Virus record (IMG/VR): IMGVR_UViG_3300048080_000243
Strand: one strand, 5' to 3'
Origin: a virus
Length of the DNA: 64,000 nt
Shown: one piece after another, positions 2,769-63,991 of the stretch
How the letters are laid out: each line of letters starts with the position of its first letter
Numbering within the stretch: position 1 is the first letter of the stretch
Made by a program: the position numbers and the translations under genes
The notes under the pieces: model-generated
Seen by the model: only the letters and a program-made list of their open reading frames with translations
Told to the model about the DNA's origin: nothing
Database searches by the model: none

Positions 2769-2968
2769 TTTTCTTCCTTTCGTACTTCGATCCAGTCCCC
2801 GCCTTTCGGGTGCCCCATTTGGTTCTCCGGGCAGTAACCGCCGTAGCGGTCCCACTTCAACAGCGCCCCGCAGTTTACGCAGTGCGTCCGCGACTTCCTG
2901 ATCGTCTTGGTTTGACGACAGGACGGATGGATCACGAGAACCCGGTAGTCTTTTGGATCGCCCATCAC
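2765..2968 (-). CDS. small Zn-ribbon protein
   Basis: HCVNCG...YCP. Confidence 0.55.
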   Translation of the reverse strand: MMGDPKDYRVLVIHPSCRQTKTIRKSRTHCVNCGALLKWDRYGGYCPENQMGHPKGGDWIEVRKEEK

Positions 2969-3882: not shown

Positions 3883-3891
3883 GTTATTTCG
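3883..3891 (-). promoter_or_regulatory. CGAAATAAC motif, copy 1 (5 nt before ATG 3877)
   Basis: Exact 9-mer found 5 times, always on the coding strand. Confidence 0.65.
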
Positions 3892-4510: not shown

Positions 4511-7500
4511 GCGGCCAGCCTGCGTTCAAACTGTCGCCGAACCGCCCAACGCGTATTTCCTGTAAGTTGAAACATTGACAAACCGTACTGGCCTGACGGT
4601 CGTGAAGGAAACCCCGGAAGCTTGCCAGAATGTACCAGTTTTTGATACTCGACGTGAGTCGTGATGTTGAAACGCTGGCGCACAATCGGCCACACTTTCA
4701 GAAACTCCTGTTTTGAAAGTATGTACACCTTGTCCAAAAACACAGATATGGACATCTTGTAAGTTTGATGCGGATTCCACGGGAATCCAGGCGGTAGCTT
4801 ACCAGCTCGTTTGGCGGACTGATACTGACTTGTGCTTGTAATGTGCAGACGCTTTCGAAGCGCAGGCCACAAACTCCAAAATTCCTCTTTGGTCATCGTC
4901 CTAGTTTTACCAACAAACAACAGCCAAGGTACACCGTACTCCACGGTAGGATCAGGAGGAAATCCGGGTGGAAGTTTTCCCGCAAGAAAAGCTTGCCTAT
5001 AAGTCAAATGTGTGTCGAGTCGCAAACGCTGTCGTACTATTGGCCAAAACCGCAAAAATTCGTTTTTCGAAAACTTGAGTGTTTTTCCAGCCACGTCATG
5101 CCACTCGATGCCGTAAGTCATTTTTGGATTTCTGGGAAACCCAACTGGAAGTTTGCCCGCTGCATGAGCCCTCAAATAGTCCTGGCCAGACTTGATGCCT
5201 ACTTGCTGTCTTAGGCCGGGAAGTTGTTGCAAAAAATGTTGTTTAGAAAGATACCGGCCACCAACAATTTTCCTCCATGTCATGTCATACGCCCATTTTG
5301 GAGAACCCGGACATTTGACGTCCAGCGTACCCGCCTTGCGACAACTGTGGTACATTCTTTCCGAGTATATATTTTTGAATTTCAAATAACTCCTAAATTC
5401 TGTCAAAGTAAAAACCACTACAGGAGGCGACAACTGGGACACCAAATCGGCCAAGGACACATCAAAGTGGTTGCGGAGACGAGAATTGACACCGCTCCAC
5501 TGCAGACCAGGGTGTCCCTTGACAGGACCTCCATGTACAGTCGGTAACGCGCCGAATCCGATCGATTCGATAATGATATCTTTGATGCCAGATAACGACA
5601 GGTAACGTGCTTGTTCAAGCCCTTGCAGTTCCGCTACAAGGTCTTTCAGACCACTATTGAAACGGTGATGCCACCATGAATTAGCTGCGCCCCAAACTCT
5701 CCCATCGCCGTGTATACGTCCACTGTTAGCTGTAGGCCACTCACCAGTTCTAGAATGATGAGCACGCACGTAACAAACAATCAAATCTCTCGACCAAGGA
5801 ATACCACGTTTTTTGTTTATGGCACCGAGCTGTTGACTTGTGATTTGAACTGTTGCAATACGCAAACAGTCCAAAGCATCGTTTTGAATGTCGAGATTTT
5901 GACCTACACCCGCAGCATCCCGCATCTCCGCGCTACGTTCACTCAGAATCTTCACCAACTCCCTGGCGATCCAATCTTTCTGAAATGTAGTCAGTAAGCT
6001 CCCCTCCACATCTTCGATCGCCTGCCGAGCCAACCCCAACACATCCGCGCTTGAAGCATCCCTTACACTCTTGCGCAACCCTTCCATGTACTCCGACACA
6101 GTGCCAAGATCTTGCAACCGCTCCAAAGCAACTCGTTCTTCATCCGTGTGTTTGAGAGTCAATTCGGGAACTTTCCACAACACACTCATAGCAAGATGGG
6201 CTACAATTGCGCCCATTGAATCCGTGATCCACTCCGCGACCGCGTCTTCATCGGCCAGTCTATCCGGAGCCGGAAGATTGACCAAAAACTCAAATTGCTT
6301 TTTCGCGTCACGCAACCCACGGCCCATCATCTGAACAGTTGTGGTCATGGACTTGCGCGGCCCCACAACCACCATGCGCTCCAACGTCGGATCGTCGAAA
6401 CCTTCCTGACACAAACCCATGGCAAACGTCACTTGAAAAGCGTTGCGTCCAGCATCAAGTTCATCACACATCCACTTTACTTTTGTATCACGGGCTGGAC
6501 CTGCTCCACATACAAGATCCAACACTTCCACTTTCTCACCCGTACGAGTTTGCAGAGTAACAGTGTTTCCGTTGGCCTGAACAACAGGCCCAATTGCCTT
6601 CATGTACCGTTTGACCATCCCTTGTTTCCGCGCTTCAAGGGCGGTCCCCGGCAAACCACACAGAGGAGATTGCGTCCAAGGCGTATAAATCAGCGTTCTC
6701 TTGGACGGTTGTTCGTACAACTTCGCTATTGTTTTTTCCGGGTGCCCCGCCACAAAACCAAGCTTCACCTTTTTCAACACCGACATTGAGTCAAGGTGCT
6801 GTCGCATCGTCATGTTGTAAACGTCGAAACGGGCCTTCGGGCCAAATAGCCGCCTGTCCTCCACGATGGCCCTTCGGTCCGAACGCATCCACGTAGCCGT
6901 AGCCAAAACCAAGCGACCCGGCTGCTCCTCCACGTAAAAATGATAGATCTTTCCCAACTCGTTCTGCGCTTTTTCTTCAATCTGGTCCTTGTATTTCTCC
7001 TGACCTTCGCTGTCCGTGTACTTGCCGTGGTGCGCTTCATCAACAAAAAGATGGACGTTTTTCCAACACTCTTTCCACCCCTGCGGGTCTTGCTCTTGGA
7101 GACGTTGGTACGCCTGAACCAGAGCCGTGTGAGTGCACACAACCACACGCTGGGAAACCGACCCGCGTGGACTCTCTCTCAAAAAGTTCACCAGACGGTC
7201 AATCGTTTTACCGTGTTCATGCATCAGAACAACAGAGGGAACGAACTCCACCACGTCTTCGCCGGGGTTGTCGCCAAAACGCACTCGCACCGGTTCCCTG
7301 TGCATGAAATCGAACGATCTCAAGATGATGGGCTTTGTTGGCGCAACAAGGATGGCCCGTGAAGTGGGGTCTTTACGAATGGCGTCGTGACAAAGCCCCA
7401 AGATCACCGCACTTTTCCCGGCACCAGTCGCCATCTTGATAAGTGCACAGCGCGATTCACGCAACCTGTGCCAAGCTTTCATCTGGTGCGGCCGAGCGAC

Positions 7501-7644
7501 CAGAGCCCCGTCTTCGTCCTTCCTCTCAGGGGCCGCCTTTGTTCCGCACACATACTCGTCCGTCAGACTCGCCCAAGGCGCAGTTTCCACCACAACGCCG
7601 TCAGCGTGTGAGGGGTTCGGAAGTTGGCCAAGTTCGGGTGTCAT
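4507..7644 (-). CDS. SF2 (ResIII/DEAH-like) helicase with C-terminal repeat arrays
   Basis: ARPHQ Q-motif, MATGAGKS, FVDEAHH, ATAT, QMMGRGLRD; two ~57 aa repeats followed by five ~59 aa repeats. Confidence 0.9.
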   Translation of the reverse strand: MTPELGQLPNPSHADGVVVETAPWASLTDEYVCGTKAAPERKDEDGALVARPHQMKAWHRLRESRCALIKMATGAGKSAVILGLCHDAIRKDPTSRAILVAPTKPIILRSFDFMHREPVRVRFGDNPGEDVVEFVPSVVLMHEHGKTIDRLVNFLRESPRGSVSQRVVVCTHTALVQAYQRLQEQDPQGWKECWKNVHLFVDEAHHGKYTDSEGQEKYKDQIEEKAQNELGKIYHFYVEEQPGRLVLATATWMRSDRRAIVEDRRLFGPKARFDVYNMTMRQHLDSMSVLKKVKLGFVAGHPEKTIAKLYEQPSKRTLIYTPWTQSPLCGLPGTALEARKQGMVKRYMKAIGPVVQANGNTVTLQTRTGEKVEVLDLVCGAGPARDTKVKWMCDELDAGRNAFQVTFAMGLCQEGFDDPTLERMVVVGPRKSMTTTVQMMGRGLRDAKKQFEFLVNLPAPDRLADEDAVAEWITDSMGAIVAHLAMSVLWKVPELTLKHTDEERVALERLQDLGTVSEYMEGLRKSVRDASSADVLGLARQAIEDVEGSLLTTFQKDWIARELVKILSERSAEMRDAAGVGQNLDIQNDALDCLRIATVQITSQQLGAINKKRGIPWSRDLIVCYVRAHHSRTGEWPTANSGRIHGDGRVWGAANSWWHHRFNSGLKDLVAELQGLEQARYLSLSGIKDIIIESIGFGALPTVHGGPVKGHPGLQWSGVNSRLRNHFDVSLADLVSQLSPPVVVFTLTEFRSYLKFKNIYSERMYHSCRKAGTLDVKCPGSPKWAYDMTWRKIVGGRYLSKQHFLQQLPGLRQQVGIKSGQDYLRAHAAGKLPVGFPRNPKMTYGIEWHDVAGKTLKFSKNEFLRFWPIVRQRLRLDTHLTYRQAFLAGKLPPGFPPDPTVEYGVPWLLFVGKTRTMTKEEFWSLWPALRKRLHITSTSQYQSAKRAGKLPPGFPWNPHQTYKMSISVFLDKVYILSKQEFLKVWPIVRQRFNITTHVEYQKLVHSGKLPGFPSRPSGQYGLSMFQLTGNTRWAVRRQFERRLAA
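4540..5420 (-). repeat. five degenerate ~59-aa (174-177 bp) coding repeats in the helicase C-terminus
   Basis: GKLPxGFPxxP recurs at about 4612, 4786, 4963 and 5140, with a more diverged copy near 5300. Confidence 0.85.
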
Positions 7645-7649
7645 GCCCA

Positions 7650-7658
7650 GTTATTTCG
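7650..7658 (-). promoter_or_regulatory. CGAAATAAC motif, copy 2 (5 nt before helicase ATG 7644)
   Basis: GTCCGAAATAAC-TGGGC-ATG. Confidence 0.7.
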
Positions 7659-7878
7659 GACTCCCATCTATCTTCCTGCACTCTTCACAATGACACTCCA
7701 CCGGGATCTCCGTCGCCCCCTCCGGAACGTGCTCCCAGCACCAATGCGACATGCCCCATTCCTCATCCTTCTCGTAGTAGGCCGCGTGCCCGCACTTGTC
7801 GCACGTAACCCACATAACTACACGGCCGTCTTCGATCCACACCCGGCCGAGCTTCGGATGTTCAGCCCACCGTCCCAC
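7651..7878 (-). CDS. small Cys-rich hypothetical protein
   Basis: CDKCG and CHCEEC; GTG start inferred. Confidence 0.55.
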   Translation of the reverse strand: MGRWAEHPKLGRVWIEDGRVVMWVTCDKCGHAAYYEKDEEWGMSHWCWEHVPEGATEIPVECHCEECRKIDGSPK

Positions 7879-8086
7879 TCGTCTCTTCTTTTTTCCGGTT
7901 GGCGGTGATGTACACGGTAGGTTCCACGCTCGTGAGGATGAACGTCTTCTCACAGGAACCACAGTCCCACTCATCCCCGCTGTTCAGGCGGCCGACGCTC
8001 TCCCACAGGGCGTTGTTCGCCCCGCAGTACGGACAGGCAAGGCGGTAATGGTCGCCTGTTGTCTCGGTATCTTCGTCTTCGGCCAT
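7862..8086 (-). CDS. Zn-ribbon protein
   Basis: ACPYCG...WDCGSCEKTF. Confidence 0.7.
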   Translation of the reverse strand: MAEDEDTETTGDHYRLACPYCGANNALWESVGRLNSGDEWDCGSCEKTFILTSVEPTVYITANRKKEETSGTVG

Positions 8087-8087
8087 A

Positions 8088-8879
8088 TCAGAGGATCAGC
8101 GTTGCCGCTTCGAACCCGGCCGCATTCTTGTGTCCGCCCCCGCCGTGCTTCTTGGCGATCTCCGAAACGTCGAAGTCACCAATAGACCGGAGCGAATACT
8201 GGAACCGCCCATCATGCCGTTGCCACCACACGAGAGCAAACGGCTGGCCCTCAGCCAAGGCGCTCCCAAGTTCTGACACGTCGAACTGGGGAGCGTTCAC
8301 GACGGGAACAGTGTGGCCCTCAAACTCCACCATGCGCATATTGCCCTTCATCGCCGCGATGTACGCTTTCGTCTTCCGCAGGATCATCGCGCCCCGTTCG
8401 ATGAGTTCCTTGGCGTCGAGCTTCGACAGTTCCTCCCAATCCTTCAACGTCATCGGCGTCGAACCCACATAAGCGCTGACCTCGTCCGGAAACGGCAAAG
8501 CGTTGCGCCAGATGTCGCGATCTTCGACGTACTTGACCAAGACAGGCCGCTCACCCTGAAAGAAATAATCCCACGCCATCCCCGCTCCGCTCCGCTCCAT
8601 GTCAAAGCGAGTGTACGGCAGTCCGGCCAAGTCCGCTTCGGCCGTCTTGTGGTGATCCAGCACCAGCAGGTCGTGCGCTGCCGCGTGAAGGGCTTCCATC
8701 ATCGACCGCTTGTAGCTGAAATCGATGATGTACACCTTCCGGTCCGCAACACTGGGCGGGGGCGTTCCGTAGAACGCCGGGTGAAGCTCCACCGCCCCGT
8801 CGAAGAACTTGTGGGCGATCCACGCGGCCGTGAAGCCGTCCTTGCAGGCGGCATGGTAGATGACGAGCGGAAGCTTCAC
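8088..8879 (-). CDS. DHH/DHHA1 phosphoesterase
   Basis: YHxxCxDG, IIDFS, LDHH, EDRD, SLRS, GGGGHKNAAGF. Confidence 0.92.
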   Translation of the reverse strand: MKLPLVIYHAACKDGFTAAWIAHKFFDGAVELHPAFYGTPPPSVADRKVYIIDFSYKRSMMEALHAAAHDLLVLDHHKTAEADLAGLPYTRFDMERSGAGMAWDYFFQGERPVLVKYVEDRDIWRNALPFPDEVSAYVGSTPMTLKDWEELSKLDAKELIERGAMILRKTKAYIAAMKGNMRMVEFEGHTVPVVNAPQFDVSELGSALAEGQPFALVWWQRHDGRFQYSLRSIGDFDVSEIAKKHGGGGHKNAAGFEAATLIL

Positions 8880-9586
8880 AGCGGGCCCACTTTTTCTTTC
8901 AGGTGGTCCGCGTACTTCTCCGTCAACTCAGCGAAGAGCAACGCAGACTTCGCCACCTCTTTCAGCGCTTCAATTCGGTCGGCGTTCCGCATCCACGCCT
9001 GAGTGTGGAACATCGGGCCCGTGGTTTCGAAGTGCTCCAACGTCTCGATGTACTGCGGCAGAAGGCCATAGATCTCTTTTGCAGTGGTCGCAAGCTCCAC
9101 CAGCTTAGCGAACACGCGCCGGGCCTCGGCTGATTCCTTCGAGATCGGCTGGGCCCTCTGCTGCAACGACTTGAACAGGTTGCCCGCCAACTGAGTCTCG
9201 GAGATTTCCGGCAGTTCCGGAATCTCCGGCCCCTGCACCGAGATCTTTTCCCCCTCACAATGCACCGTCGCCACGCACACGCTGGTCTCCCGGTCGCCGC
9301 CCACATGCACCTTCACCTTGAGGGACGGGGCGACCTTCACCAACTTTTCCAAGTGACGAGCGATGGACGCCGCGCCCATATTACGTTCGCCAGTGTTCCC
9401 CACCGCGTTGATGACCTTTGCTGGCCACATACCGACCCCGGCCAGTCCGCCGGTGAACGCGAGGGCCCCGAACTTGTCGCCCAAGGAATCTTCGTTGCGG
9501 TAGTCGCAGTTGATGGCGTCTCGAAGCGGTTCAACCTCCGCTTCCGCGCACGTCCCCGTGATCCACGCTCTGTGCCAGTTTCCCAT
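8876..9586 (-). CDS. hypothetical protein
   Basis: ATG at 9586 with GAGGAGG RBS; 236 aa. Confidence 0.7.
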   Translation of the reverse strand: MGNWHRAWITGTCAEAEVEPLRDAINCDYRNEDSLGDKFGALAFTGGLAGVGMWPAKVINAVGNTGERNMGAASIARHLEKLVKVAPSLKVKVHVGGDRETSVCVATVHCEGEKISVQGPEIPELPEISETQLAGNLFKSLQQRAQPISKESAEARRVFAKLVELATTAKEIYGLLPQYIETLEHFETTGPMFHTQAWMRNADRIEALKEVAKSALLFAELTEKYADHLKEKVGPL

Positions 9587-9828
9587 CAGCCCCTCCTCAG
9601 CGCTCCGGCCATTCGACGCGAGATTCGCATAGCGTCTCGCACCTGACGAAGCCCGTTCACCAACGTCTTTTCGGCTTGCTTTTCCTTGCCACGCCAAAGT
9701 TGGTTCAATGCAAACCCCGCGTGAAGCATGATAATCACCAACGCCGCCCCCGTCGGGTCAATCTCTTGTGCCGCCTTCTTCACGCGACGCTTCCACGTCG
9801 CCGACGTGACCTTGCGTTGCTTCGACAT
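9586..9828 (-). CDS. hypothetical protein
   Basis: 80 aa, abuts both neighbours. Confidence 0.55.
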   Translation of the reverse strand: MSKQRKVTSATWKRRVKKAAQEIDPTGAALVIIMLHAGFALNQLWRGKEKQAEKTLVNGLRQVRDAMRISRRMAGALRRG

Positions 9829-10440
9829 CTACTTCTTGAGTGCCGGAGCGGGAGCGGCAGCAACAGCCGGAGCGACGGCCGGGTCACGAAGGCGCAGCGG
9901 TTCAGCCCTCTTGGTCTCGAAGGCCCGCTGCGTCTCATCACTGGTCATAATGTCGAACTTGGCGAGGTCGATGCGAGGGAATCCGAACATGCCCGCGAAC
10001 ATCGAATTCGGGAACACCTGCAGAATGTTCTCGTACACCCGCTTCTTGTCCACCAGCATCTTCTGTTCGGCCTCAAATGAAAGCCGCCCAGCCTCAATCA
10101 CCTGTTGGACCTGCTTGTAGATGGAAGCGTCCACGTTCGGATTGTGCTCTTGAATCCACTGAAACACGGCCTTTGATCCGGACGCCCCATACCGGCCCTG
10201 AATTGCCGAAGTGTACACTTTCTTGAGGTCGTCGGTGTACATCTCAGGGACCTGTGCGACCTCTTTGATCTTCTTCCACATATTGTCGTAGCTGTTCTGG
10301 TTCTGGCTGTACTGCGCCTTGATTCCGTTCTCTTGCGTAACGCAGGTGTTGTTGAAGCCGACGGCGCAACCGACGACTCCGAGTCCGAACACGACGAACA
10401 GGGCTGCCGCCCCGAGAGCGATCATCAGTCCCTTGCTCAT
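9829..10440 (-). CDS. LemA-like membrane-anchored protein
   Basis: N-terminal TM ending GVVGC, helical body, C-terminal FPNSMFAGMFGF typical of LemA. Confidence 0.7.
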   Translation of the reverse strand: MSKGLMIALGAAALFVVFGLGVVGCAVGFNNTCVTQENGIKAQYSQNQNSYDNMWKKIKEVAQVPEMYTDDLKKVYTSAIQGRYGASGSKAVFQWIQEHNPNVDASIYKQVQQVIEAGRLSFEAEQKMLVDKKRVYENILQVFPNSMFAGMFGFPRIDLAKFDIMTSDETQRAFETKRAEPLRLRDPAVAPAVAAAPAPALKK

Positions 10441-10442
10441 GG

Positions 10443-11534
10443 CTAATACCTCCATCTTTGAGAAGGACCGTGGTCCTCCGGGGTGAACGTCTCATGCATG
10501 TAGAAAAGAATGCCAAGGCCAATAGCGATCAACACCGCCACGATCAGCGATACGACCCACGCCGTCGTGGACGGAGTGATGCACGCCCTCAGGTACTTGA
10601 ACTCGTCCATAGAGCGCCGGACGTAGAATTGGCTGACGTCTTCGTGCACGATCTTCAAGACTTCGGCCAGTTTGTCGATATTTCCGAGCGCTTGAAGATC
10701 GTCCCGCAGACGCACCTTCACCATTTCATTCTTGGTCCACGCCATCACGCTGACCCACGAAATCGAACCCTTAGGGTCGGCGCTCACAACCACAATGACA
10801 TCATTCTTCTTGCCGCCAAGCCACGAATGCTCCAGCGCGTAGAACCACTCCGGGGCCCGGTCACGCACGATCACGAACACGACGTTGGCCTGTTTCCTCG
10901 CGCCCAGTTCAGCGTTGAGTTGCGAAAACGCTTCGTTCCACTGACGAACGTCGGCGAGCGCTACGCCATCTGCAATCACGCGATCCAGATGCCAATAATC
11001 GTACACCTTGATGGGGTACGTAGGGACCGTACCTTTGTACTTCTCGTACTCTGCCGCCCGCCGAAAGAGCGTGTCCGGTGCGGCTTTGATGTAGTTGGTG
11101 TAGTGGTGTCGAACGGCAGTGGGCTCCCCCATCTTCGTGACAGTCCAGCGGGACGGCTCATCCTCCCCCTGCCTGTCCACCCGGTTGATCTCGATAGATT
11201 CGCCGTTGGTCGTGTACACCATCCAGTCATAGTCACACCAATGCTCATAGCAGGTATCGCAGGTCGTGTTTCCCTCACTGTCCGTTGTGCAGTTGCAAGA
11301 ATAGGAGTGGCTACACGGAACGGTCACACGTTTCTTGTCCGAGACGCGACCGTTCCACACTTCGTTGTCGTAGGTAGCAGCGTAGTACGTGATCCCGCAC
11401 GCGGCCCCAGCAACGGCCGCCTGTGCGCCGAGGTGAGCAAGGAACTCCCACAACGTCACGCGTCGGCCCCCGAAAATCAGGAACCCAAGCGCGATCAGCG
11501 ACGGGACGCCGAAGACAGCGAGAAAGAAAATCAC
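10443..11534 (-). CDS. membrane protein with TPM-like periplasmic domain (LemA partner)
   Basis: Two N-terminal TMs, Cys-rich segment, WLGGKKNDVIVVV, C-terminal TM. Confidence 0.7.
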   Translation of the reverse strand: MIFFLAVFGVPSLIALGFLIFGGRRVTLWEFLAHLGAQAAVAGAACGITYYAATYDNEVWNGRVSDKKRVTVPCSHSYSCNCTTDSEGNTTCDTCYEHWCDYDWMVYTTNGESIEINRVDRQGEDEPSRWTVTKMGEPTAVRHHYTNYIKAAPDTLFRRAAEYEKYKGTVPTYPIKVYDYWHLDRVIADGVALADVRQWNEAFSQLNAELGARKQANVVFVIVRDRAPEWFYALEHSWLGGKKNDVIVVVSADPKGSISWVSVMAWTKNEMVKVRLRDDLQALGNIDKLAEVLKIVHEDVSQFYVRRSMDEFKYLRACITPSTTAWVVSLIVAVLIAIGLGILFYMHETFTPEDHGPSQRWRY

Positions 11535-31217: not shown

Positions 31218-33235
31218 CCGGACGTCCTCCCGCCACGACCACGGCTTGAACCGCGCCCGCCAACAGGCAAACCAACAGAACGCCTCGGCATGATGGATGT
31301 CGGCAGCATGTTTGGCGGCAAAGTCGGGTCCGGGGGCACCTGTGAGTTATTTCGGATAGCGGTCATGTCAGCAGAAGAGACTGGGAAACCTTGGGCCTTG
31401 GGCGAGAACGGGTTGCCACTGGCGTTCCCAGCCGACGTGTGCTGGGCCTTCACCCCGACGCTCCGTCTCTTAGCGAACGCCCACAATGCTGCTTGCGGGT
31501 CTTTTAGCCTACCATTGAGCAGTCTGGCGCACCCGGCGAGAGCGTCCGCGATGTCCTTGGAACCAAAAGTCGGCGACCCCTCAGGCGGGTGATCCACTTT
31601 GTTCGACCCCACTCGGACGAGCCGCGTCAACTCCTGCGTCTGTAACGGGTGGTCGAGAAGTTCGGCCGCGCCCGTGTAAATCAGGCTCTGCAAAAGCGCG
31701 TAATCGGCATAGCTGACCACGTGCTCTTCCGTGTACACGCGATGACGCTTCAAAGCTTCTTGCAGCGTGGCTGAGTTCCACGCATCACACCCGAACATCC
31801 TAATCCGAAGACCGCGCCGCATAAGGTCAAGAATCAAAGCTTCGACGCTGGCAACCGCCACTTGAAGCTGGCGCGACGGGTCGGGCTGCCACACGACGAC
31901 TGCCTCTTCGATCAGCTTATTCACGGTCGTCTGTTGAATCTCGCCTGAAGTTTCAGACTTGATCTCGACCTTCACAGGTTCGCCACGGGCGATAACAAGC
32001 GCTGCACGGTTACTGACTCGCCCAAGGTCAACCCACCCAACGCGCGAATGTTGCATTTCCTGTACGCTGTTGATAAGCCACTCACCGATTTCCTGCCCGA
32101 GCATCCTCTCACGCTTCGAACGCCCGTTCATGGCGTCCACAAGTTCCACTTCCACCAACGTGGAGCGAGTGCGGAAGATGGGAATACGATTCTTGTTGAT
32201 ACATTCGGTGATGCGTTCCGGGTACTCGAAAAACGCCCCAGCGATCTTGGGCGGGATCGTGAGGTACTTGGCCTTGGCGTCCGCCGGGGTAGTCTTGAAC
32301 TCCTTCTCGAAGTCAATCGGGATCTTGAATCCTTCAAAGTCGAAAGTCTGATCCGAGAAACTGCCCGGCGGCCGGACTTCCCACGTTGACGCGCGTGCAA
32401 CTTTGAACCGCAGCGTCTCGTTGAGCGCCTGCTCGTACATTCGCATCGTGAAATCCGTGTCCGACTCCGAACGCGGAAACGACATAACGATCCCACGCCA
32501 TCGTCCGGGGAAGCGGGAGTTCGCCGATGTCGTGAGCGTGCTGTAAATCTTGTCGCCGTTGGCAATCTTGGTCTCGCTCTTGAAGGCCGAAGCCTCGTCC
32601 ATGACCCAGAACAAGATGTCGTGTCCTTCGTAGCTCTCCTGTTGGCTGTGCTCAGAGATGGCGCGAATGCCTTTCGGAAAGTTGATGCGGTCTTCTTTGA
32701 TCCGCACGTACTCGCTGGCCGGACTGAAGCTAGCCATGGACGGAACCATGCGCCCCCGGTGGAACATGCGGTAACGCTTCCGAAGCCAAACCCACGCCTT
32801 CACCAACTCCACAAGCGTGGCGAAATACACATCACTCGCCTGATCCGAACTGTACGCCACGTTGACCAGACTGATGAAGCCACGGCCCTTGAAACCCAAC
32901 CACTCGCGTGGCTTGTGCAGACACAGGAGGATGTAGATAACGTACATGGCGATTGCACGCGCCATCGTGTCTTTGCCGGAACCCTTGCCGAGAAGCCAAA
33001 TGGCCGTACTCGCGCGGTCAAGGTCGCGCTCGAAGAACCTCGTCCCGTCGGGGCCGACGAAGTCCTCCATGAACTCGTACTGCTTGTCGGAAAACCGGAA
33101 GTTCAGGTGTTCCGGCGACTCACAAAACTCGCGAAGTTTGATAGGACGTTCGATCCAGTCGGTGACAGTGCTAATGCTGGCGATATCACCTTTGCCGTCC
33201 TTCAAACCCGCTTCGACAATACTGCGAAGCGACAT
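31211..33235 (-). CDS. terL: terminase large subunit
   Basis: Walker A GKGSGKD, VNVAYS, Walker B FWVMDEAS, RNase H-like VDLG, CDAWN, KDIADALAG. Confidence 0.92.
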   Translation of the reverse strand: MSLRSIVEAGLKDGKGDIASISTVTDWIERPIKLREFCESPEHLNFRFSDKQYEFMEDFVGPDGTRFFERDLDRASTAIWLLGKGSGKDTMARAIAMYVIYILLCLHKPREWLGFKGRGFISLVNVAYSSDQASDVYFATLVELVKAWVWLRKRYRMFHRGRMVPSMASFSPASEYVRIKEDRINFPKGIRAISEHSQQESYEGHDILFWVMDEASAFKSETKIANGDKIYSTLTTSANSRFPGRWRGIVMSFPRSESDTDFTMRMYEQALNETLRFKVARASTWEVRPPGSFSDQTFDFEGFKIPIDFEKEFKTTPADAKAKYLTIPPKIAGAFFEYPERITECINKNRIPIFRTRSTLVEVELVDAMNGRSKRERMLGQEIGEWLINSVQEMQHSRVGWVDLGRVSNRAALVIARGEPVKVEIKSETSGEIQQTTVNKLIEEAVVVWQPDPSRQLQVAVASVEALILDLMRRGLRIRMFGCDAWNSATLQEALKRHRVYTEEHVVSYADYALLQSLIYTGAAELLDHPLQTQELTRLVRVGSNKVDHPPEGSPTFGSKDIADALAGCARLLNGRLKDPQAALWAFAKRRSVGVKAQHTSAGNASGNPFSPKAQGFPVSSADMTAIRNNSQVPPDPTLPPNMLPTSIMPRRSVGLPVGGRGSSRGRGGRTSGW
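31346..31354 (-). promoter_or_regulatory. CGAAATAAC motif, copy 3 (inside the terL 3' end)
   Basis: Exact match; in-frame GTG 6 nt downstream; about 130 nt before gene 31217. Confidence 0.45.
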
Positions 33236-36792: not shown

Positions 36793-36821
36793 ATTTTAGC
36801 CCCTGACGGCCTCGGCGTCAA
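36793..36821 (-). promoter_or_regulatory. sigma70-like promoter of the lysis cassette with TGACG-N7-CGTCA palindrome
   Basis: TTGACG-17 nt-TAAAAT; inverted repeat 36804-36820 over the -35 and spacer. Confidence 0.75.
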
Positions 36822-37312
36822 GAGATGGAGACTTCGTTGCCCGCCACATCACGACGACGCCCTCCATGCGGACAATACCCATAAGCGCCTAGACTAGCAT
36901 TGCAGTTTGAACACAAAACTCTAAACCCGCTTGGAAACTTACGTCTTTTCAAATCGTAGTACACGGACTGGCCGCCCCCACCCACCAAACGACGGTGCTT
37001 CATTCCACCACCTCCAACATGATCCAAAACCAAAAACTCTAACTTGTTTTCACTACAACAGTCACAACGCAAAGTCCCGCCGGAATAGTGCGACAGTGCT
37101 TTCATTCTGTTGACCCAGCGATGACACCTGCCATTCTTTACAAACCACCGGCGATTTACCGCTCGCTTCCACGGTCGCATACAATCCCTGCAGTACCCCT
37201 GAAAACCGTCATATCGGGATTTGTTTTTGCCAAACTTTACGCCGGGACTCCCGTTCGATCTCTTGCACTTTGGGCAGATTTTAGGGGGCCGTTCCTGTCC
37301 ACAACCTTCCAC
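36818..37312 (-). CDS. HNH (His-Me finger) homing endonuclease overlapping the purZ 3' end
   Basis: CPKC, YCRDC, CDCC..LVLDH..VLCSNCN; resembles 48663-49238. Confidence 0.85.
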   Translation of the reverse strand: MEGCGQERPPKICPKCKRSNGSPGVKFGKNKSRYDGFQGYCRDCMRPWKRAVNRRWFVKNGRCHRWVNRMKALSHYSGGTLRCDCCSENKLEFLVLDHVGGGGMKHRRLVGGGGQSVYYDLKRRKFPSGFRVLCSNCNASLGAYGYCPHGGRRRDVAGNEVSIS

Positions 37313-38328
37313 CCTTCACCACCTGTCCCGACAAACGCAACAGGACACTTGGCCACCTCCTCCAAATACGACACGAAATCTTTGGTTTTCTGCGACAAAT
37401 CATACCATTCAGTCTTACCTTCGTCAATGCTAGACAAGTAGTCAGCGAAGGTCAGGGCGATCTGGTTCGGCTGGTTGAGTTGCACAGCCCGGTGAAAGAG
37501 TTCGGCGTCCCACTCACTCACCCGCCGGACCTTCTTGGTCACGGTCGTGCGTTCAAGCACCGGCTTGCCGACGCGCTTGCTCATTTCATCCCACGTCAGT
37601 TCGTGGAACATGGGCCCGGAGTTCCCGGCCACCCGGATGGGATAGGTCCGTACCACCAGCATGATGTCTGTGACGAGTCGAGGAGAAATCCCGACGTCGG
37701 CACAAAGCTGAGCCGCGTTCGTGTCGGCCGTCGTACAGTACGGCCAAGGACCGTGAATCAAACTCAGACCGGAGCCCTGCGTGCCTTCGAGCAGGATCGA
37801 AGAACCGCCCCGGTGCCAGGCGAGGATGTAATCGATCGTCCTCTCCTTCACCCACGGCCGAAGTTCCGGCACGTCACGAACCAGACGAAACTTCGACGGG
37901 TCGCGCATCAGGCGGCCAAGTCTGGCAGCGCCGACACCCTCTCCGGTCGAGCCGATTCTCTTGTGAAGTTCCCCATCGACCCCGCCCTCGGCCTCGTGCT
38001 CGGTCTTGCTCAGCACGGTCGCCGCTCCGTCAATCATGATGCGGCTCTCGATGTTGGGGTCCACCTGCTTGATCATTTCCAGTTCCTGCAAGAACTGTTC
38101 GGGGGACACCACCGCCCCCGCCCCGATCACGAGGTTGGCGTCGGGGTTGGTCCACCCGCAAGGAATGCTTTGCATCTTGTAAAGCTTCCCGTCGCAGTAG
38201 AACGAATGGCCAGCATTCGGGCCCCCGACGCGAACATGCACGCCGTAATCACGGGCGATATGGTTGACGATCACGCCCTTTCCCTCGGAGCCGTACTGAG
38301 CACCCACCACGACCAAGACTTTGCTCAT
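37237..38328 (-). CDS. purZ: PurZ/PurZ0-like aminodeoxyadenylosuccinate synthetase (PurA paralogue)
   Basis: GAQYGSEGKG (Ser at the PurA Asp13 position), GPNAGH, IGSTGEG, EGTQG, PYCT, PIRVAGNSG, ERTTVTKKVRRV, TFADY. Confidence 0.85.
   Translation of the reverse strand: MSKVLVVVGAQYGSEGKGVIVNHIARDYGVHVRVGGPNAGHSFYCDGKLYKMQSIPCGWTNPDANLVIGAGAVVSPEQFLQELEMIKQVDPNIESRIMIDGAATVLSKTEHEAEGGVDGELHKRIGSTGEGVGAARLGRLMRDPSKFRLVRDVPELRPWVKERTIDYILAWHRGGSSILLEGTQGSGLSLIHGPWPYCTTADTNAAQLCADVGISPRLVTDIMLVVRTYPIRVAGNSGPMFHELTWDEMSKRVGKPVLERTTVTKKVRRVSEWDAELFHRAVQLNQPNQIALTFADYLSSIDEGKTEWYDLSQKTKDFVSYLEEVAKCPVAFVGTGGEGWKVVDRNGPLKSAQSARDRTGVPA
37399..37427 (-). promoter_or_regulatory. sigma70-like promoter embedded in purZ coding sequence, positioned to drive the HNH
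   Basis: TTGACG-17 nt-TATGAT with TGn extension. Confidence 0.7.
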
Positions 38329-38337
38329 GTCTTCTCC

Positions 38338-38883
38338 CTATCGATGACCGAGGTTGAGATACGAAGAGACCGCCGACACCACCGCCCCCGGCGCTACACG
38401 CGACGTGTCGATCACCAGATCCGCGAGCATGGTCAGTTCATCCACTTTCATCTCGGTCCGGTTCTTTCGGACTTCGTCGTAGGACCGCATTTCCTTGACC
38501 TTGCTCACCCTTCCCTTGTACCGGGAAACGAGCGTCCTTTGCGGTGCGCGAAGGTGGATATGGAACACGGCCGGACCGAAAGACCGGCGGATCGCCCGAA
38601 TCTGAGGCTCGATACGCACAGCATCCACGACCAGCCGTGCGCCGGGGTTGTTGTCCACCATTTCATGGACGCCATCACACACCCACTCCCCGTCACGCTT
38701 CTTGTCGAGAAGCTGGCCGAAAGTCTGCAAGCGACTCCGGTGCGCGACACTGTCGTGCGCGAGCTTCATCAGGTACTCGCGCGTCTTGAACACGTCGAAA
38801 TCGTGCTGCCGGATCAGCCCATCGCAGAGCGTGGACTTCCCGACCGCCACAGGGCCCGAGACCAACACAATCAAGCGTTCCAT
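38338..38883 (-). CDS. P-loop nucleotide (NMP-type) kinase
   Basis: LVSGPVAVGKST, LVVDAVR, lid LVSRY, ADLVIDT; 9 nt upstream of purZ. Confidence 0.82.
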   Translation of the reverse strand: MERLIVLVSGPVAVGKSTLCDGLIRQHDFDVFKTREYLMKLAHDSVAHRSRLQTFGQLLDKKRDGEWVCDGVHEMVDNNPGARLVVDAVRIEPQIRAIRRSFGPAVFHIHLRAPQRTLVSRYKGRVSKVKEMRSYDEVRKNRTEMKVDELTMLADLVIDTSRVAPGAVVSAVSSYLNLGHR

Positions 38884-38888
38884 GCCGG

Positions 38889-38897
38889 GTTATTTCG
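38889..38897 (-). promoter_or_regulatory. CGAAATAAC motif, copy 4 (intergenic, 5 nt before the kinase ATG)
   Basis: GTCCGAAATAAC-CCGGC-ATG in a 20-nt gap with no SD. Confidence 0.75.
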
Positions 38898-47680: not shown

Positions 47681-48586
47681 CTAAGCCTGTTTCTGCCCCG
47701 GTGCGGTAAGCGTGGCAATCTCCCCGTTTGAACGCCGAACTTGGTGAAGCTCCATGTTGAAGTCGGCATCCACAATCACCAGCTCGTCGTAATCCTCGCG
47801 CCGAAGATCCGGAAACTCGAAGCTCTTCCAGTGACGTTCGTAAGCATCAGGTTCAACATAAGTCGAACCACCTTTCCGGGTCTCGTTGCGCTCCCGGTAC
47901 ACATCCACTTCAACCGACACGAAAGCAATCATGCGCCACGCTTGGTACTCTTTACCAACGGCCGACCACCGACTCCGCTTCTCTCGGCTCAAGTTGGTGC
48001 GGTCCACCATCACGTGCTTGCCGTTCTCGAAGGCTGCACGGATGCCTTCAAGCTCAACGCGGTGATACACGCGCCGAAGCTCGTTGTACGGCCCGCCGAC
48101 CATATTACTGATCTCATCCAGATTCACGCGGGCCCACGCACCGTCATCCGTCATTAGACGACGGCTGAATGTGCTTTTCCCACTGCCCGGAAACCCTACC
48201 ATCGCAATCAACTTGAGACCTTTGTGCGGGACAATACGTGCCGCAATCTCAGACCACGAACGACGACGTCGGTACGACACCGCCTCGTTGCCGATGTAGG
48301 CGAAGCGAGGAATCTTCCCTTTACTTCCGTCGTCAATGCTGTCGTACGGCAACCCGTGTTCTTCCATGAAGGCTGTCATCGTCTTGACGTGCTCTTGGAT
48401 CTCTTCCGGCGAATACAAAACCGCCGACGTCCGGGCCGAACTGATGACCACCTTCAGCCCAGACGCGCGAATACGTTCGAGCGCGTCCTTTACACCGTCT
48501 TCTGGCTGCTCAGTCTTCCCATCACGAACGGTGTCGTCAAAATCGACGGCAACCGTGTCCGATGAAGTTTCGAAGCCGTCGGCCAT
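47681..48586 (-). CDS. HAD phosphatase-like plus polynucleotide-kinase (AAA_33-like) fusion
   Basis: VAVDFDDT, ISSAR; MVGFPGSGKST, RVNLDEI, MVDRTN, RNETR. Confidence 0.8.
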   Translation of the reverse strand: MADGFETSSDTVAVDFDDTVRDGKTEQPEDGVKDALERIRASGLKVVISSARTSAVLYSPEEIQEHVKTMTAFMEEHGLPYDSIDDGSKGKIPRFAYIGNEAVSYRRRRSWSEIAARIVPHKGLKLIAMVGFPGSGKSTFSRRLMTDDGAWARVNLDEISNMVGGPYNELRRVYHRVELEGIRAAFENGKHVMVDRTNLSREKRSRWSAVGKEYQAWRMIAFVSVEVDVYRERNETRKGGSTYVEPDAYERHWKSFEFPDLRREDYDELVIVDADFNMELHQVRRSNGEIATLTAPGQKQA

Positions 48587-48592
48587 GGGTGT

Positions 48593-48620
48593 AGTGTACC
48601 ACCCGAACACGACGGCACAA
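48593..48620 (-). promoter_or_regulatory. leaderless sigma70-like promoter for the HAD-kinase gene
   Basis: TTGTGC-16 nt-TACACT-6 nt-ATG with TGn extension. Confidence 0.6.
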
Positions 48621-56876: not shown

Positions 56877-57205
56877 GCCCCGTTATTTCGGGACGGGAGT
56901 TCCACGTTCTTGCGTTCGATGCCAGCCGCTTTCAAAATGGCCCACGCTTCAGGCGGCCAGTCTTCGATACGCGCAGCGCGAAAGTAGTTGTGCGCCTGTT
57001 TAGTACGCACGACAGGCCGGAACTGAGCACCGACACGCTTGCACTTGAAACACCAATGTACCTCCCACGCGCCGTCCGTCGTGCGAGCCCATTCGCCGAT
57101 AGAACCGTCACAGATTTTTTCCGGCGGCAGTCCATACGCCACCAACCCGTCAGGGGAGTAATGCGCGTACGACCACCACTTGCCAGCCTCGAATCGGAAT
57201 CCCAT
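56873..57205 (-). CDS. hypothetical protein
   Basis: 110 aa, CFKC. Confidence 0.6.
   Translation of the reverse strand: MGFRFEAGKWWSYAHYSPDGLVAYGLPPEKICDGSIGEWARTTDGAWEVHWCFKCKRVGAQFRPVVRTKQAHNYFRAARIEDWPPEAWAILKAAGIERKNVELPSRNNGA
56882..56890 (-). promoter_or_regulatory. CGAAATAAC motif, copy 5 (5 nt before ATG 56876)
   Basis: CCGAAATAAC-GGGGC-ATG; here the TAA is not a stop codon. Confidence 0.65.
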
Positions 57206-60722: not shown

Positions 60723-61009
60723 GCGCTCACCGTCTCAAACAAGTGACCGATGAACCGACCCTCGTCAAGCTGGAATGTACCGATGTACTGAAGCTCGTCG
60801 AACTCCCCGTCCTGCTCCAGCATGTGACCAGTACCAGCCACTCGAAACTGCCTCGGCACCTTCTGCTGCTCGGACGGGTCAACCATAACCCAGATACAAG
60901 GCCGCCCGTTCTGCACTTGCACGGTGAGTACCTTCGCCCCGACGGGCAACAGAAACTCGACGCGATCCATCACGTCGAAAGCGTACTTCCACACCGCAAG
61001 AGGTTTCAT
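60719..61009 (-). CDS. conserved phage hypothetical protein
   Basis: VWKY..LPVGAKVLTVQVQ..IW..GTGH..YIGTFQ..HLFE. Confidence 0.75.
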   Translation of the reverse strand: MKPLAVWKYAFDVMDRVEFLLPVGAKVLTVQVQNGRPCIWVMVDPSEQQKVPRQFRVAGTGHMLEQDGEFDELQYIGTFQLDEGRFIGHLFETVSA

Positions 61010-63636
61010 GTCGTGACTGATTCTTTCGGGGCTTCAGCCCGGCCAGCATCAACATCTGCCTGTCTACGTTTGATCGCGTCCAGTTCATCAGACCCACCAC
61101 GACCCTCCTCCACCTTACCGGGTAAGGGCGTCTTTGTCGGCTTGGCCCACGTATCGGCCACAGTCGTGTCGAGCACGATCGGTATGTCCCAGCCCTTCAC
61201 CGGCGGGGACGTCAACTCTTCGCTAATGATAACCCCAGCGCGTGGGACGTCTTCAATCTTCACTTCCCACATGAGGCCATCGTGTTCGTTGAGCACCAAA
61301 TACGCTTCCATACCCTCGGCGTCCAAACGGCGCTGCGCCCAAATAGCCCCACGATTAGGAAGATCGCCAGAATAGCTACCCTGAATGTGGGCGTCGAACA
61401 GTTCCCGCTCGGCTGCTTCACGAACCTTGAAATCCGGGTGGTTGATGTTCGGATGACGGCGACAACGTCCGAACAAACCCGCCACGTACCCGTTCTTCTT
61501 AGCAAAGCGAATGACACGATCCCGATACTCTGCTGTCACCGAATAACGCGCCCAGAACCGCTCATACTGAACGTTGGCCTCAGCCTCAGATATCCCGAAC
61601 TTTGAAGCCAAACCACGGGTCGTGATGCCGTTGAACATGCCGAAGTTCATGCGCTTGCCCCGGTCGCGGTATCCCTTCTTGGTCGGGTCCCCATCCTGTT
61701 TTTTGTGGTCCGTGTCTACTTCTTCTTTAGTCTTACGGAAAACGTCCACAGCGGTGTCAGCGTGCAAATCCTGATACAGCTGAAACGCATCGACCAGCTT
61801 GGGATCTCGGCCGCAGAACGCGATGCCACGCAACTCGATCTGGCCGTAGTCCACCTTGATGAACTTGTAGCCCGGTCGGGCAACGAACGCTCGTCGCACC
61901 GACGAATTCTTGGACACAGCCATGATGTTGATGGGCTTACGCGACGACACGCGCCCCGACACCGTGCCGTGAATCAAGAAGTTGGTGTGCATCGTGCCGT
62001 CCGGCTCAAGCACGTTCAAAATATTCTCACCCCACGACGACAGCAACTTCTGATTCTGCCGGTATTCAATCAGGTCCTGAACCAACGGGTGTCTGCCACT
62101 AATGGCGTCCAAAACCGGCCGGGCAGTAGAACCGCGCTCCACGTGTGTGAGGCTGTCGGGAAACGGAATCTTCAGCCTTTCGAAAAGAACAACGGACATT
62201 TGAGCCGGATTATCGATGTTGGTACCCTCGCCCACCTCCGGATACTTTTGGATCTTCTCCTTCAGTGCTTTCACCTGTCCGCGCCACTTCACAATCTCGA
62301 CCCCCAAAACTTCCGCGTCCACCTTCAAACCGCGCTTCTCCATCCTCGCGTACAGGTGAACCATCGGCATCACAATACCGGTGAACAGCGGCTCCCACAG
62401 CCCCTCTTCGATTAGGCGCGGTTTGTGTTCGTGATACAGCCGAAGCGTGCCGTCCGTGTCGCCCATCGCGTACTTGGCCAAAGCTTCGAGCGGTACTTTG
62501 GACAGATCGTAACTCTTGGACCCGCGCTTTCCGGCGAAACGTTCAACCTCTCGCTTGTACAGTCCCAGATCGTGATACTTGAGCGTGAGCGCGTCCAGTT
62601 CCGTGGTCTCGTTCTCGTCCAGAAGGTGCGCCGACTGTCCCGTATCGAAGTCCACCCCGTTGACCACCATTCCGGCCGTGTCGGAGACTTCAATATCATA
62701 CTTGACGTGATGCCCGACCTTCGGAATCGGTGACGCCAAAAGCCGAGCGATAAGCGCCATCACCGCTGCTTGAGCATCACCCCAAAAATCCGCGACGATC
62801 TCACCGACACGACGACTGACGGGAATGTAGATGCCCTGTCGTTCCGCCCACGAAAAGGCGACTCCGAGCGGCCTCGCACGCCACGGGGACACGCCCAAAG
62901 CTTCACGGAGTTCTTCCGGCACATGCGCGAGTGTGGTCTCCCAGTCGAACGCACACCGGTCAGGACGGTCGGGGCCCTCGAATAGTTCCACGACCTGCTG
63001 CACGTCCTCAATCTTGGTGAGCAGACGGTAGTCCTTCTTCGGTTCCTCCACACCCTCTTCGACCATCTTCTTGGCCATCCGGAAATCTGTGACGATGGCC
63101 TCTCGGACAGCGGCCGACTTGGACACGCGCTTCTCGATGTCGCTGGGATGGTGCGTGACCACGACCCTGCGGCCAAGCTCGGGCTGGGTGAAATACCGGC
63201 CTCGGATGTCTTCAGATCGTCCAAAACCCAACAGCGACTGGGTAGCCACGTCGCCCATGGCGATGATCACCTGCGGCTGGACCCTTTGCGCTTCGTCTCT
63301 CAGGAACGGATAGCAGAAATCGATCCGTTTGGTCGTGACGTCGTCTTCTTCCTGCGGCCGACACCTAAGCGCAGTGGTAACAAACACGTCACCAAGGTTG
63401 ATACCGGCCTCAATGAGAAGCTCGTTGATCAGCACGCCAAGCTTGCCCACCATGAGCTTGCCGTTCTTGTCTTCGAGAGCAGCCGGAAAACGGCCGACCA
63501 ACATGTACTTCGGCTGGTCGGCGTTTCCGCTTCCCGGCACTTTCCAGCTTCGACAGCCCTTCTTGTGAAGCTTACAGGCTGTGCAGAGCCCGGATTCAAC
63601 CGAACCCTGCAAATCAAGAGAAGCCTGTGTGGACAC
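61006..63636 (-). CDS. polA: family A DNA polymerase with N-terminal family-4 UDG-like domain and 3'-5' exonuclease
   Basis: UDG: CTAC, RCRP, FCYPFL, THHPS; Exo: FDWET, GHHVKYD, YAMGD; Pol: DYGQIELR, KRMNFG, HD. Confidence 0.93.
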   Translation of the reverse strand: MSTQASLDLQGSVESGLCTACKLHKKGCRSWKVPGSGNADQPKYMLVGRFPAALEDKNGKLMVGKLGVLINELLIEAGINLGDVFVTTALRCRPQEEDDVTTKRIDFCYPFLRDEAQRVQPQVIIAMGDVATQSLLGFGRSEDIRGRYFTQPELGRRVVVTHHPSDIEKRVSKSAAVREAIVTDFRMAKKMVEEGVEEPKKDYRLLTKIEDVQQVVELFEGPDRPDRCAFDWETTLAHVPEELREALGVSPWRARPLGVAFSWAERQGIYIPVSRRVGEIVADFWGDAQAAVMALIARLLASPIPKVGHHVKYDIEVSDTAGMVVNGVDFDTGQSAHLLDENETTELDALTLKYHDLGLYKREVERFAGKRGSKSYDLSKVPLEALAKYAMGDTDGTLRLYHEHKPRLIEEGLWEPLFTGIVMPMVHLYARMEKRGLKVDAEVLGVEIVKWRGQVKALKEKIQKYPEVGEGTNIDNPAQMSVVLFERLKIPFPDSLTHVERGSTARPVLDAISGRHPLVQDLIEYRQNQKLLSSWGENILNVLEPDGTMHTNFLIHGTVSGRVSSRKPINIMAVSKNSSVRRAFVARPGYKFIKVDYGQIELRGIAFCGRDPKLVDAFQLYQDLHADTAVDVFRKTKEEVDTDHKKQDGDPTKKGYRDRGKRMNFGMFNGITTRGLASKFGISEAEANVQYERFWARYSVTAEYRDRVIRFAKKNGYVAGLFGRCRRHPNINHPDFKVREAAERELFDAHIQGSYSGDLPNRGAIWAQRRLDAEGMEAYLVLNEHDGLMWEVKIEDVPRAGVIISEELTSPPVKGWDIPIVLDTTVADTWAKPTKTPLPGKVEEGRGGSDELDAIKRRQADVDAGRAEAPKESVTT

Positions 63637-63640
63637 GGGC

Positions 63641-63991
63641 CTATTTCTTGATGAACTTGTAGACGATCCGTTCACCACCGTCGGGGCCTTTCTTGGTCCC
63701 GTCGCTTTCCAAGTACGTGCGGTTGTTGAGATGGAACTTGTTGAGACGGTTGCGTGCCGTCTTCTCCGAGCACTTGTACGCTTTCCGGAGAGCCTGCACC
63801 ATCTCCTCGGTCGTGCGCGGTGCTTCGAGCAAGAGCCCAATCAGGAACATGTTCTTCGGGAGCTTCGGCGGAGCGCCGAACTCCTTCTTCGCCGTCTGGT
63901 AGCGCTTGATCACTTCGGCCGGTCCGAGCTTCTGCCAGTTCGCCCGGATCATCGCCTGCTTGCTCGCCCTCGCCTTTCGTTTCTTCGGCAC
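63641..63991 (-). CDS. basic, possibly winged-helix DNA-binding protein
   Basis: GAGGA RBS; LLLEAPRTTEEMVQAL...TARNRL. Confidence 0.6.
   Translation of the reverse strand: MPKKRKARASKQAMIRANWQKLGPAEVIKRYQTAKKEFGAPPKLPKNMFLIGLLLEAPRTTEEMVQALRKAYKCSEKTARNRLNKFHLNNRTYLESDGTKKGPDGGERIVYKFIKK

Follow-up and report, generated by a model that had tools for sequence, protein, structure and literature searches.

A synthetase of a PurZ0-sister clade and its hitherto undescribed kinase partner in an uncultivated phage

Which enzyme phosphorylates the monophosphate when a phage makes nucleotides of 2-aminoadenine (Z)? Published accounts give this step to host enzymes (PMC8342488; bioRxiv 10.1101/2025.10.22.683976) or leave it to 'uncharacterized phage proteins' (PMC12884076), and no kinase is mentioned in PMC12884076 or PMC8342488. 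The question is raised by two adjacent genes of an uncultivated phage, IMG/VR record IMGVR_UViG_3300048080_000243, which a preliminary description made from the letters alone had read as a PurZ0-like synthetase paired with a dedicated nucleotide kinase. For this analysis we used 64 kilobases (kb) of the 73,362-base contig (referred to as the window in the rest of the text), and every negative result given for the window has this stretch as its scope. The pair joins a synthetase from a sister clade of PurZ0 to a kinase partner that had not previously been described.

The gene pair and its synthetase

The pair and its start motif are laid out as follows.

38889-38897, minus strand: CGAAATAAC motif, 5 nucleotides (nt) ahead of the kinase ATG; may serve the two genes as a phage-specific promoter or start signal
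38338-38883, minus strand: adenylate-kinase-like P-loop nucleoside monophosphate (NMP) kinase of 181 amino acids (aa), AAA_18/UPF0200-like (Pfam AAA_18, 5.6e-9); proposed kinase of the Z deoxynucleoside monophosphate (dZMP)
38329-38337, minus strand: 9-nt spacer GGAGAAGAC, read directly, with a Shine-Dalgarno-like GGAG between kinase stop and synthetase start
37237-38328, minus strand: 363-aa Ser-type PurA-family synthetase (PF00709, 1.4e-56), sister clade of PurZ0; proposed synthase of N6-succino-2-amino-2'-deoxyadenylate (dSMP)
3883-3891, 7650-7658, 31346-31354, 38889-38897 and 56882-56890, minus strand: exact copies of CGAAATAAC

The TAG stop of the kinase gene is followed by the nine nucleotides of the spacer and then by the synthetase ATG, a sequence best explained by a single, translationally coupled unit. 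The preliminary description had placed a P-loop gene 9 nt upstream of the synthetase, and the 181-aa ORF (open reading frame) with its Walker A motif is indeed there; the motifs it quoted from the synthetase (QYGSEGKG, here within GAQYGSEGKG, PIRVAGNSG, TTVTKKVRR and TFADY) all lie in the 363-aa ORF. It had also given the pair a start sequence of its own. The 9-mer CGAAATAAC occurs five times in the window, always on the coding (minus) strand, against 0.32 copies expected, a number reached in 0 of 100 shuffles. Four copies stand 5 nt ahead of an ATG by ORF coordinates (the sequence was read for the kinase only), and behind these lie a 124-aa ORF, the helicase gene, the kinase gene and a 53-aa ORF preceding Metallophos/Rad50-like genes; CGAAATAAC may mark a regulon of DNA-metabolism genes. 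Complex prediction for the synthetase and kinase proteins returned a score of 0.00, which carries no weight for or against binding.

With positions numbered as in E. coli PurA, the window synthetase has a Ser in the alignment column of the catalytic Asp13, as the preliminary description had stated. A Ser stands at this position in 147/147 phage sequences of the PurZ group, and Asp is 99% conserved there in the PurA group (PMC12884076). The residues K16, N38, H41, T129, R143, Q224, V273, T301, R305 and D333 are kept, so that apart from Asp13 the catalytic residues and those of the IMP/Asp site are all conserved, and the G302K and R303K substitutions are the same as in phiVC8 PurZ and Hiyaa PurZ0. 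The TKLD segment of PurA reads T-F-A-D-Y, with the Asp of PurA and PurZ0 (position 333 is Asp in PurZ0 and Asn or Gln in PurZ) and the Phe331 and Tyr334 of PurZ. In PurZ, F295 and Y298 stabilise the adenine of ATP (bioRxiv 10.1101/2025.10.22.683976). Since D333 fits GTP while F331 and Y334 fit adenine stacking, GTP and ATP cannot be told apart as the donor from the sequence. The retained Asp that had been taken as the mark of a GTP-using PurZ0 is therefore present, but so are the PurZ-type Phe and Tyr, and GTP use is not to be read from these residues.

The synthetase matched phrog_1211 at 1.3e-72. Among proteins of solved structure, P. horikoshii PurA (2D7U/5K7X) matched its sequence best, at 206 bits end to end and with the same short architecture, followed by PurZ0 7vf6 (160 bits) and phiVC8 PurZ (148 bits). 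The equivalog model for archaeal short PurA, NF003295, gave 287 bits against a cut-off of 368, and TIGR00184 gave 218 bits against a cut-off of 395. Archaeal PurA differs in having Asp13 and TKLD (Thaumarchaeota set), in falling in a separate clade and in scoring 524 bits on NF003295 in the thaumarchaeal calibration. Identity to the best deposited phage proteins was 33-39%. Metagenomes hold a large family of relatives at 54-65% identity with Ser in nearly all, which we call cladeW.

To place these sequences we computed an IQ-TREE phylogeny of 92 rows, comprising the window synthetase and 26 cladeW sequences, 4 PurZ0 and 4 PurZ references, 23 cellular fusion domains, 21 cellular stand-alone genes, 9 short archaeal Asp-type PurA and 4 long PurA as outgroup. 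A Ser-type superclade of 79 rows (support 99/99) excluded both the short archaeal and the long Asp-type PurA, which separates the window protein from true PurA. It lay inside cladeW (28 rows, 100/99), with P0002 as its closest relative in the tree (65%). CladeW, the four PurZ0 (Ghobes, Archimedes, Hiyaa and Wayne) and one Saccharibacteria sequence formed a 33-row clade (99/95) in which the window synthetase was sister to the four PurZ0 and not nested among them; the node uniting PurZ0 and cladeW without L017 had support of only 93/39. PurZ proper was a separate clade (100/98). CladeW is a large PurZ0-sister clade of phages seen only in metagenomes. Two assignments were rejected: true PurA, by Ser13, the tree separation and the equivalog scores below cut-off; and membership in the cellular fusion clade, which the tree recovered at 100/100 without the window protein.

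Compared one by one with its characterized relatives, the window synthetase shares Ser13, D333 and Lys303 with the PurZ0 of actinophages (Gordonia Archimedes PDB 7VF6, Ghobes, Arthrobacter Wayne, Streptomyces Hiyaa), to which it is only 35-39% identical. It differs from them in having Phe331 and Tyr334 as in the ATP-using PurZ (Phe331 occurs in Ghobes PurZ0 too), a C-terminus that is full-length like that of archaeal PurA, and a kinase partner, with no dutZ or dmtZ found in the window. With PurZ (phiVC8 6FM1, S-2L 7ODX and Acinetobacter phages) it has Ser13, Phe331 and Tyr334 in common, and its TTVTKKVRR is identical to that of phiVC8; PurZ differs in its own clade, in the Asn or Gln at 333 and in coming from genomes with DatZ and MazZ, which were not found in the window.

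The neighbourhoods of related genes were surveyed in the 80 best IMG/VR PurZ-like loci, about two-thirds of them cladeW at 43-62% identity (L-numbers label loci). A dUTPase-fold (DutZ-like) gene lies directly downstream of the PurZ-like gene in 60 of the 80, a family A polymerase (PolA) gene upstream in 50 and a MazZ-like gene in 16. Relatives of the window gene thus have a PolA-PurZ-dUTPase(DutZ-like) layout, a likeness to PurZ0 phages, for which a DpoZ-PurZ0-DutZ arrangement has been described (PMC12884076; bioRxiv 10.1101/2025.10.22.683976), and this context says that most of cladeW is a Z-pathway clade. Around the PurZ-like gene of the nearest relative (L132, 65%; 4885-11047) lie genes for guanylate kinase, NDT (DmtZ-type) and a protein with a Gad2 anti-defence domain, and L095 (3083-5112) has an adenosine/AMP-deaminase-family gene directly upstream of its PurZ-like gene; DNMK-like genes near purZ in L095 rest on faint precomputed Pfam hits only. 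These neighbours may be alternative routes to remove deoxyadenosine (dA) or to complete synthesis of the Z deoxynucleoside triphosphate (dZTP). The kinases near purZ in L132 and L095 are unrelated to the window kinase family. Five cladeW records, three of them at least 90% complete (L140, L149 and L162; G047, G050 and G051), were tested and had no dUTPase, no YfbR-like gene and no window-type kinase. Since the three most complete ones lack a dUTPase and a YfbR/DatZ-like gene, PurZ-like genes do occur without a known partner that clears deoxyadenosine triphosphate (dATP).

The kinase and its relatives in cells

The AlphaFold (AF2) model of the kinase, whose Walker A motif reads GPVAVGKST, had a mean predicted local distance difference test (pLDDT) score of 93. 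Foldseek matched it to the AMP-bound adenylate-kinase-related (AdkA-like) protein of Sulfolobus, 3lw7, with a template modelling (TM) score of 0.76-0.83, and to UMP/CMP kinases and AK1; further structural matches are archaeal UPF0200 proteins, with TM as high as 0.84, and the prokaryotic viperin pVip P0DW53 in its kinase domain. On this model the fold is that of an adenylate-kinase-type NMP kinase, which bears out the P-loop NMP-kinase of the preliminary description. The profile of the family matched 3lw7 at 1.7e-8 and AK1 at 1e-5, and guanylate kinases over the P-loop only; this sequence evidence gives only a lean toward adenine-type kinases. In PADLOC the window kinase was called VakA at 3.5e-6, and its fused relatives matched the kinase part of the defence dCTPase model (positions 156-321). 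The likeness to defence-attached kinases (pVip-linked or pVip-fused VakA, the kinase domain of the defence dCTP deaminase) thus extends from this match to the pVip fold; the similarity is weak, however, and the partner enzyme in the window is a PurA-family synthetase.

The same coupling recurs in cells. An exhaustive HMMER search returned 946 representative kinase relatives. In at least 20 of the top 150 the kinase is followed, from about residue 190, by a GGQYGSEGKG domain, and these proteins measure about 530-545 aa in full. The Ser-type motif was present at no fewer than 558 loci when a single genome of each prokaryotic species was scanned; kinase fusions account for 44-45 of the best 80, and in 63 of these 80 the kinase is fused or adjacent. 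Directly upstream in 44 of the 80 is a gene for an M78/CapP-like peptidase of about 461 aa with a DarG-like C-terminal region. Unfused versions of kinase, PurA-like and DUF7002 genes also occur in cells. The hosts belong to Acidobacteriota, Chloroflexota, Pseudomonadota, Planctomycetota, Verrucomicrobiota, Actinomycetota, Thermoplasmatota and Nitrosopumilus, and genomes with the cassette retain a normal PurA too. The cellular cassettes, kinase-PurZ-like with M78 (CapP-like) and macro/DUF7002 genes, resemble the window pair in kinase family (39-49% identity), in placing the kinase ahead of the synthetase, in the Ser13 and TF.DY of the synthetase domain, and in occurring also as unfused neighbours. 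They differ in that the window synthetase belongs to the phage cladeW and the pair is two ORFs in a phage context; a tblastn search of the window with the M78 and DUF7002 partners gave nothing better than E 0.45. That the two are fused or adjacent time and again, in two synthetase clades, argues strongly for a shared pathway of kinase and synthetase.

Two further observations concern records of cellular genomes. On Dehalococcoidia chromosomes (L031, L035, L043 and L071) the gene after a stand-alone Ser-type PurA-like gene codes for a 293-aa protein of the dCTP-deaminase/dUTPase fold, and a kinase of the window type lies about 1.8 kb downstream, a third cellular arrangement of these parts. In a 0.9-Mb Nanoarchaeota metagenome-assembled genome (G006, L018), the Ser-type gene is the sole PF00709 match found, and the record is either a mis-binned viral contig or an archaeon without an Asp-type PurA.

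Among phages the coupling is rare. The window kinase family was found in 0 of 50,697 deposited phage records and in no cladeW locus among the 80 best IMG/VR loci, and a search for the window kinase in viral and metagenome contig collections gave no match. Six of the 80 IMG/VR loci do have a window-type kinase (38-42% identity); every one of these loci is of the cellular-fusion type, and an M78 gene accompanies one of them. Kinase-PurZ-like pairs and fusions, whose recurrence the preliminary description had proposed to check, thus do recur, on bacterial and archaeal chromosomes but not in phages. Since the kinase family is otherwise tied to the cellular PurZ-like clade, the window phage joins a phage-clade synthetase to a kinase of a family otherwise linked to cells. 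The kinase tree is poorly resolved, with fused and free forms intermixed and no well-supported clade around the window row. In a limited literature search we found no paper linking a kinase to PurZ, or an adenylosuccinate synthetase to anti-phage defence.

What the pair may make

We give an even chance to the reading that the pair is a Z-nucleotide module. The synthetase would join aspartate to deoxyguanosine monophosphate (dGMP), with GTP or ATP, to give dSMP; host PurB would release dZMP; the adenylate-kinase-like phage enzyme would phosphorylate dZMP to the diphosphate, dZDP; and host nucleoside diphosphate kinase would supply dZTP for replication. A search of the window for a PurB-like gene gave none, hence the expected reliance on the host for this step. 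On this reading both enzymes' substrates would be the ones just named, with the donor either nucleotide, and virion DNA might carry Z in full, in part or not at all. In its favour are the Ser at Asp13 with the other catalytic residues intact, the Lys-Lys at 302-303, the clade shared with PurZ0, the PolA-PurZ-dUTPase layout of related loci, the NMP-kinase fold, the repeated fusion of this kinase family to Ser-type domains, the unrelated nucleotide kinases near purZ in other cladeW phages, and the 9-nt spacing of the pair.

Several observations weigh against a Z module. The synthetase scored 244.5 bits on the PurZ model NF038379, under its curated 300-bit cut-off, which five reference enzymes clear (Archimedes 325, Wayne 367, Hiyaa 374, S-2L 350 and phiVC8 397); the PurZ0 among them span 325-374 bits, thaumarchaeal PurA reaches 174, and PurZ0 references score 185-190 on NF003295. 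By the scores on these two models the window enzyme is intermediate and outside the curated PurZ definition. The name PurZ0-like therefore stands for its place in the Ser-type superclade and on the PurZ0 side of the tree (99/95), but not for its score, which is below a limit that real PurZ0 and PurZ pass. Searches by tblastn and phmmer for DatZ, MazZ, DutZ, NDT and PurB found nothing in the 64 kb, and phiVC8 and S-2L DatZ and MazZ queries had no match there; guanylate kinase, adenosine deaminase and DNMK queries were likewise without result. Pfam and PHROGs scans of most window ORFs, with the structural region covered through the precomputed Pfam table of a copy in Logan, showed no dUTPase, HD, MazG, DUF550 or NDT, so that the DatZ, MazZ and DUF550 genes for which the preliminary description had proposed a search were not found in the window. 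By comparison, dutZ is present in 98/98 PurZ0 genomes (PMC12884076). The window PolA (61006-63840, minus strand; 944 aa, with an N-terminal domain of the uracil-DNA glycosylase (UDG) superfamily, a 3'-5' exonuclease and a PolA domain) is just 23-26% identical to phiVC8 DpoZ, Wayne PolA and cladeW PolAs, and a pattern scan of IMG/VR found no relatives of it. All looked-up contexts of the nearest kinase relatives are cellular and of the defence-island type, not phage, and the pair occupies a moron-like spot among late genes. About 9.4 kb of the contig lie outside the stretch searched for partner genes. Because DatZ, DutZ, MazZ and NDT were not found in the window, a Z-substituted genome is deduced from the family of the synthetase.

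That no dATP-clearing enzyme or DpoZ-like polymerase was found in the window would suit a different role, in which the pair is a conflict module, a stripped-down cellular cassette carried by the phage as a moron that alters the nucleotide pool and leaves adenine in its own DNA in place, directed at competing phages (superinfection exclusion) or at host defence. The closest kinase relatives (39-49%) sit on chromosomes, in cassettes that combine an M78/CapP-like peptidase gene with kinase, PurA-like and DUF7002 genes and adjoin type I restriction genes, and this account also draws on the VakA match of the kinase, the match of its fused versions to the defence dCTPase kinase domain, the moron-like site between tail-fibre-like and lysis genes with an upstream motif of its own, and the Gad2 anti-defence domain that adjoins the PurZ-like gene of L132. 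The synthetase, however, lies outside the cellular fusion clade (100/100) and deep in the phage cladeW, itself mostly found within replication modules; the M78 and DUF7002 partners were not found in the window, and the cellular cassette is itself uncharacterized. We regard this role as somewhat unlikely. It is quite improbable that the pair works on ribonucleotides, turning GMP into 2-aminoadenosine monophosphate and then diphosphate, for use in signalling, as an analogue of a cofactor or as a building block of RNA. The sequence does not settle 2'-deoxy specificity, the clade is nearer than PurZ0 to the archaeal PurA that use ribo-IMP (inosine monophosphate; 287 against 185-190 bits on NF003295), and the kinase resembles AMP-binding adenylate-kinase-like proteins; yet most cladeW genes are flanked by genes for DNA polymerase and a dUTPase-like deoxynucleoside triphosphate (dNTP) pyrophosphatase, and Lys-Lys at 302-303 is common to Hiyaa PurZ0 and the dGMP-using phiVC8 PurZ.

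The adenylate-kinase-like character of the kinase, the top match among solved structures (P. horikoshii PurA at 206 bits) and the top-scoring NCBIfam model (archaeal PurA) would all be expected if the phage merely boosted adenine nucleotides during infection with an ordinary PurA, converting IMP to AMP, and an adenylate kinase. Against this stand the Ser at the catalytic Asp13, where the PurA group has 99% Asp (PMC12884076), the 287 bits against the equivalog cut-off of 368 and the 524 of a true archaeal PurA, and the 99/99 split in the tree; we consider ordinary purine metabolism the least probable of these readings, with a very slim chance.

Beyond the Z module itself, a broader proposal, which we think unlikely, is that the kinase family is a dedicated kinase of dZMP or its ribonucleotide counterpart and that kinase and Ser-type synthetase are an old unit used on both the phage and the host side: phages would use it to finish dZTP for their own DNA, hundreds of bacteria and archaea would produce antiviral Z-type nucleotides with the fused form, controlled by an M78/CapP-like protease, and the window phage would be a recombinant of a cellular-type kinase with a phage-type PurZ0-like gene, one that might also build Z-DNA without any known dATP-clearing enzyme. 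A kinase tied to PurZ-type enzymes, fused to them in hundreds of cellular genomes and coupled to one in this phage, is a concrete candidate for the phosphorylation that the pathway lacks, and it links the chemistry of phage Z genomes to an uncharacterized cellular cassette in defence-island contexts. If a dedicated dZMP kinase is what it is, it could improve engineered production of Z-DNA in synthetic biology. CladeW genes are liable to be annotated only as generic adenylosuccinate synthetases, since the clade scores under the curated PurZ cut-off (another member, L001, has 236 bits on NF038379).

The phage and the surrounding genes

The sequence occurs in one run only, a sediment metagenome, and a 14-kb copy containing the synthetase is present in Logan. 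Megablast of 20 kb against deposited phages gave no match. The window codes almost exclusively on the minus strand and has a tailed-phage-like gene content, with no tRNA genes. Besides the UDG-exonuclease-PolA protein, its genes code for RecA, an SbcC/Rad50-like ATPase, a Metallophos (Mre11-type) phosphoesterase and a superfamily 2 helicase; further genes code for an N6_N4 methylase, a Mu-F-like head protein, a small-terminase-like protein and an endolysin with a PG_binding_1 domain. The claim of a genome much larger than those of classic Z phages fails, since the contig is 73,362 bases and the PurZ0 phage Hiyaa has 83,219.

The pair is flanked on one side by a tail-fibre-like region and on the other by an HNH gene and the PG_binding_1 endolysin gene.

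36818-37312, minus strand: HNH endonuclease ORF (phrog_2255, 9.8e-9), which shares 76 nt with the 3' end of the synthetase gene

The HNH ORF is 28% identical (E 2e-9) to the HNH protein flanking the PurZ-like gene in L002, and HNH genes also adjoin purZ in Wayne, vB_BpsS-140 and L095. It is probably a homing or mobility element travelling with purZ, and this recurrence suggests that purZ has spread by homing.

Three other proteins are the sole further nucleotide enzymes in the window. An NT5C-like 5'(3')-deoxyribonucleotidase (2199-2855, minus strand; Pfam 6.2e-8, phrog_2643) is the only candidate there for a drain of deoxynucleoside monophosphates such as dAMP, and any role for it in a Z pathway is speculative. 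A DHH/DHHA1 protein is encoded at 8088-8879. A second P-loop kinase-like protein (47681-48610, minus strand; AAA_33, 1.6e-18), KTI12-like and with an N-terminal extension of about 130 aa, may be an enzyme of the polynucleotide-kinase type. The N6_N4 DNA methylase (995-2089, minus strand) is 48-52% identical to methylases encoded just downstream of PurZ-DutZ in the cladeW loci L133, L136 and L141, and may travel with PurZ-DutZ clusters.

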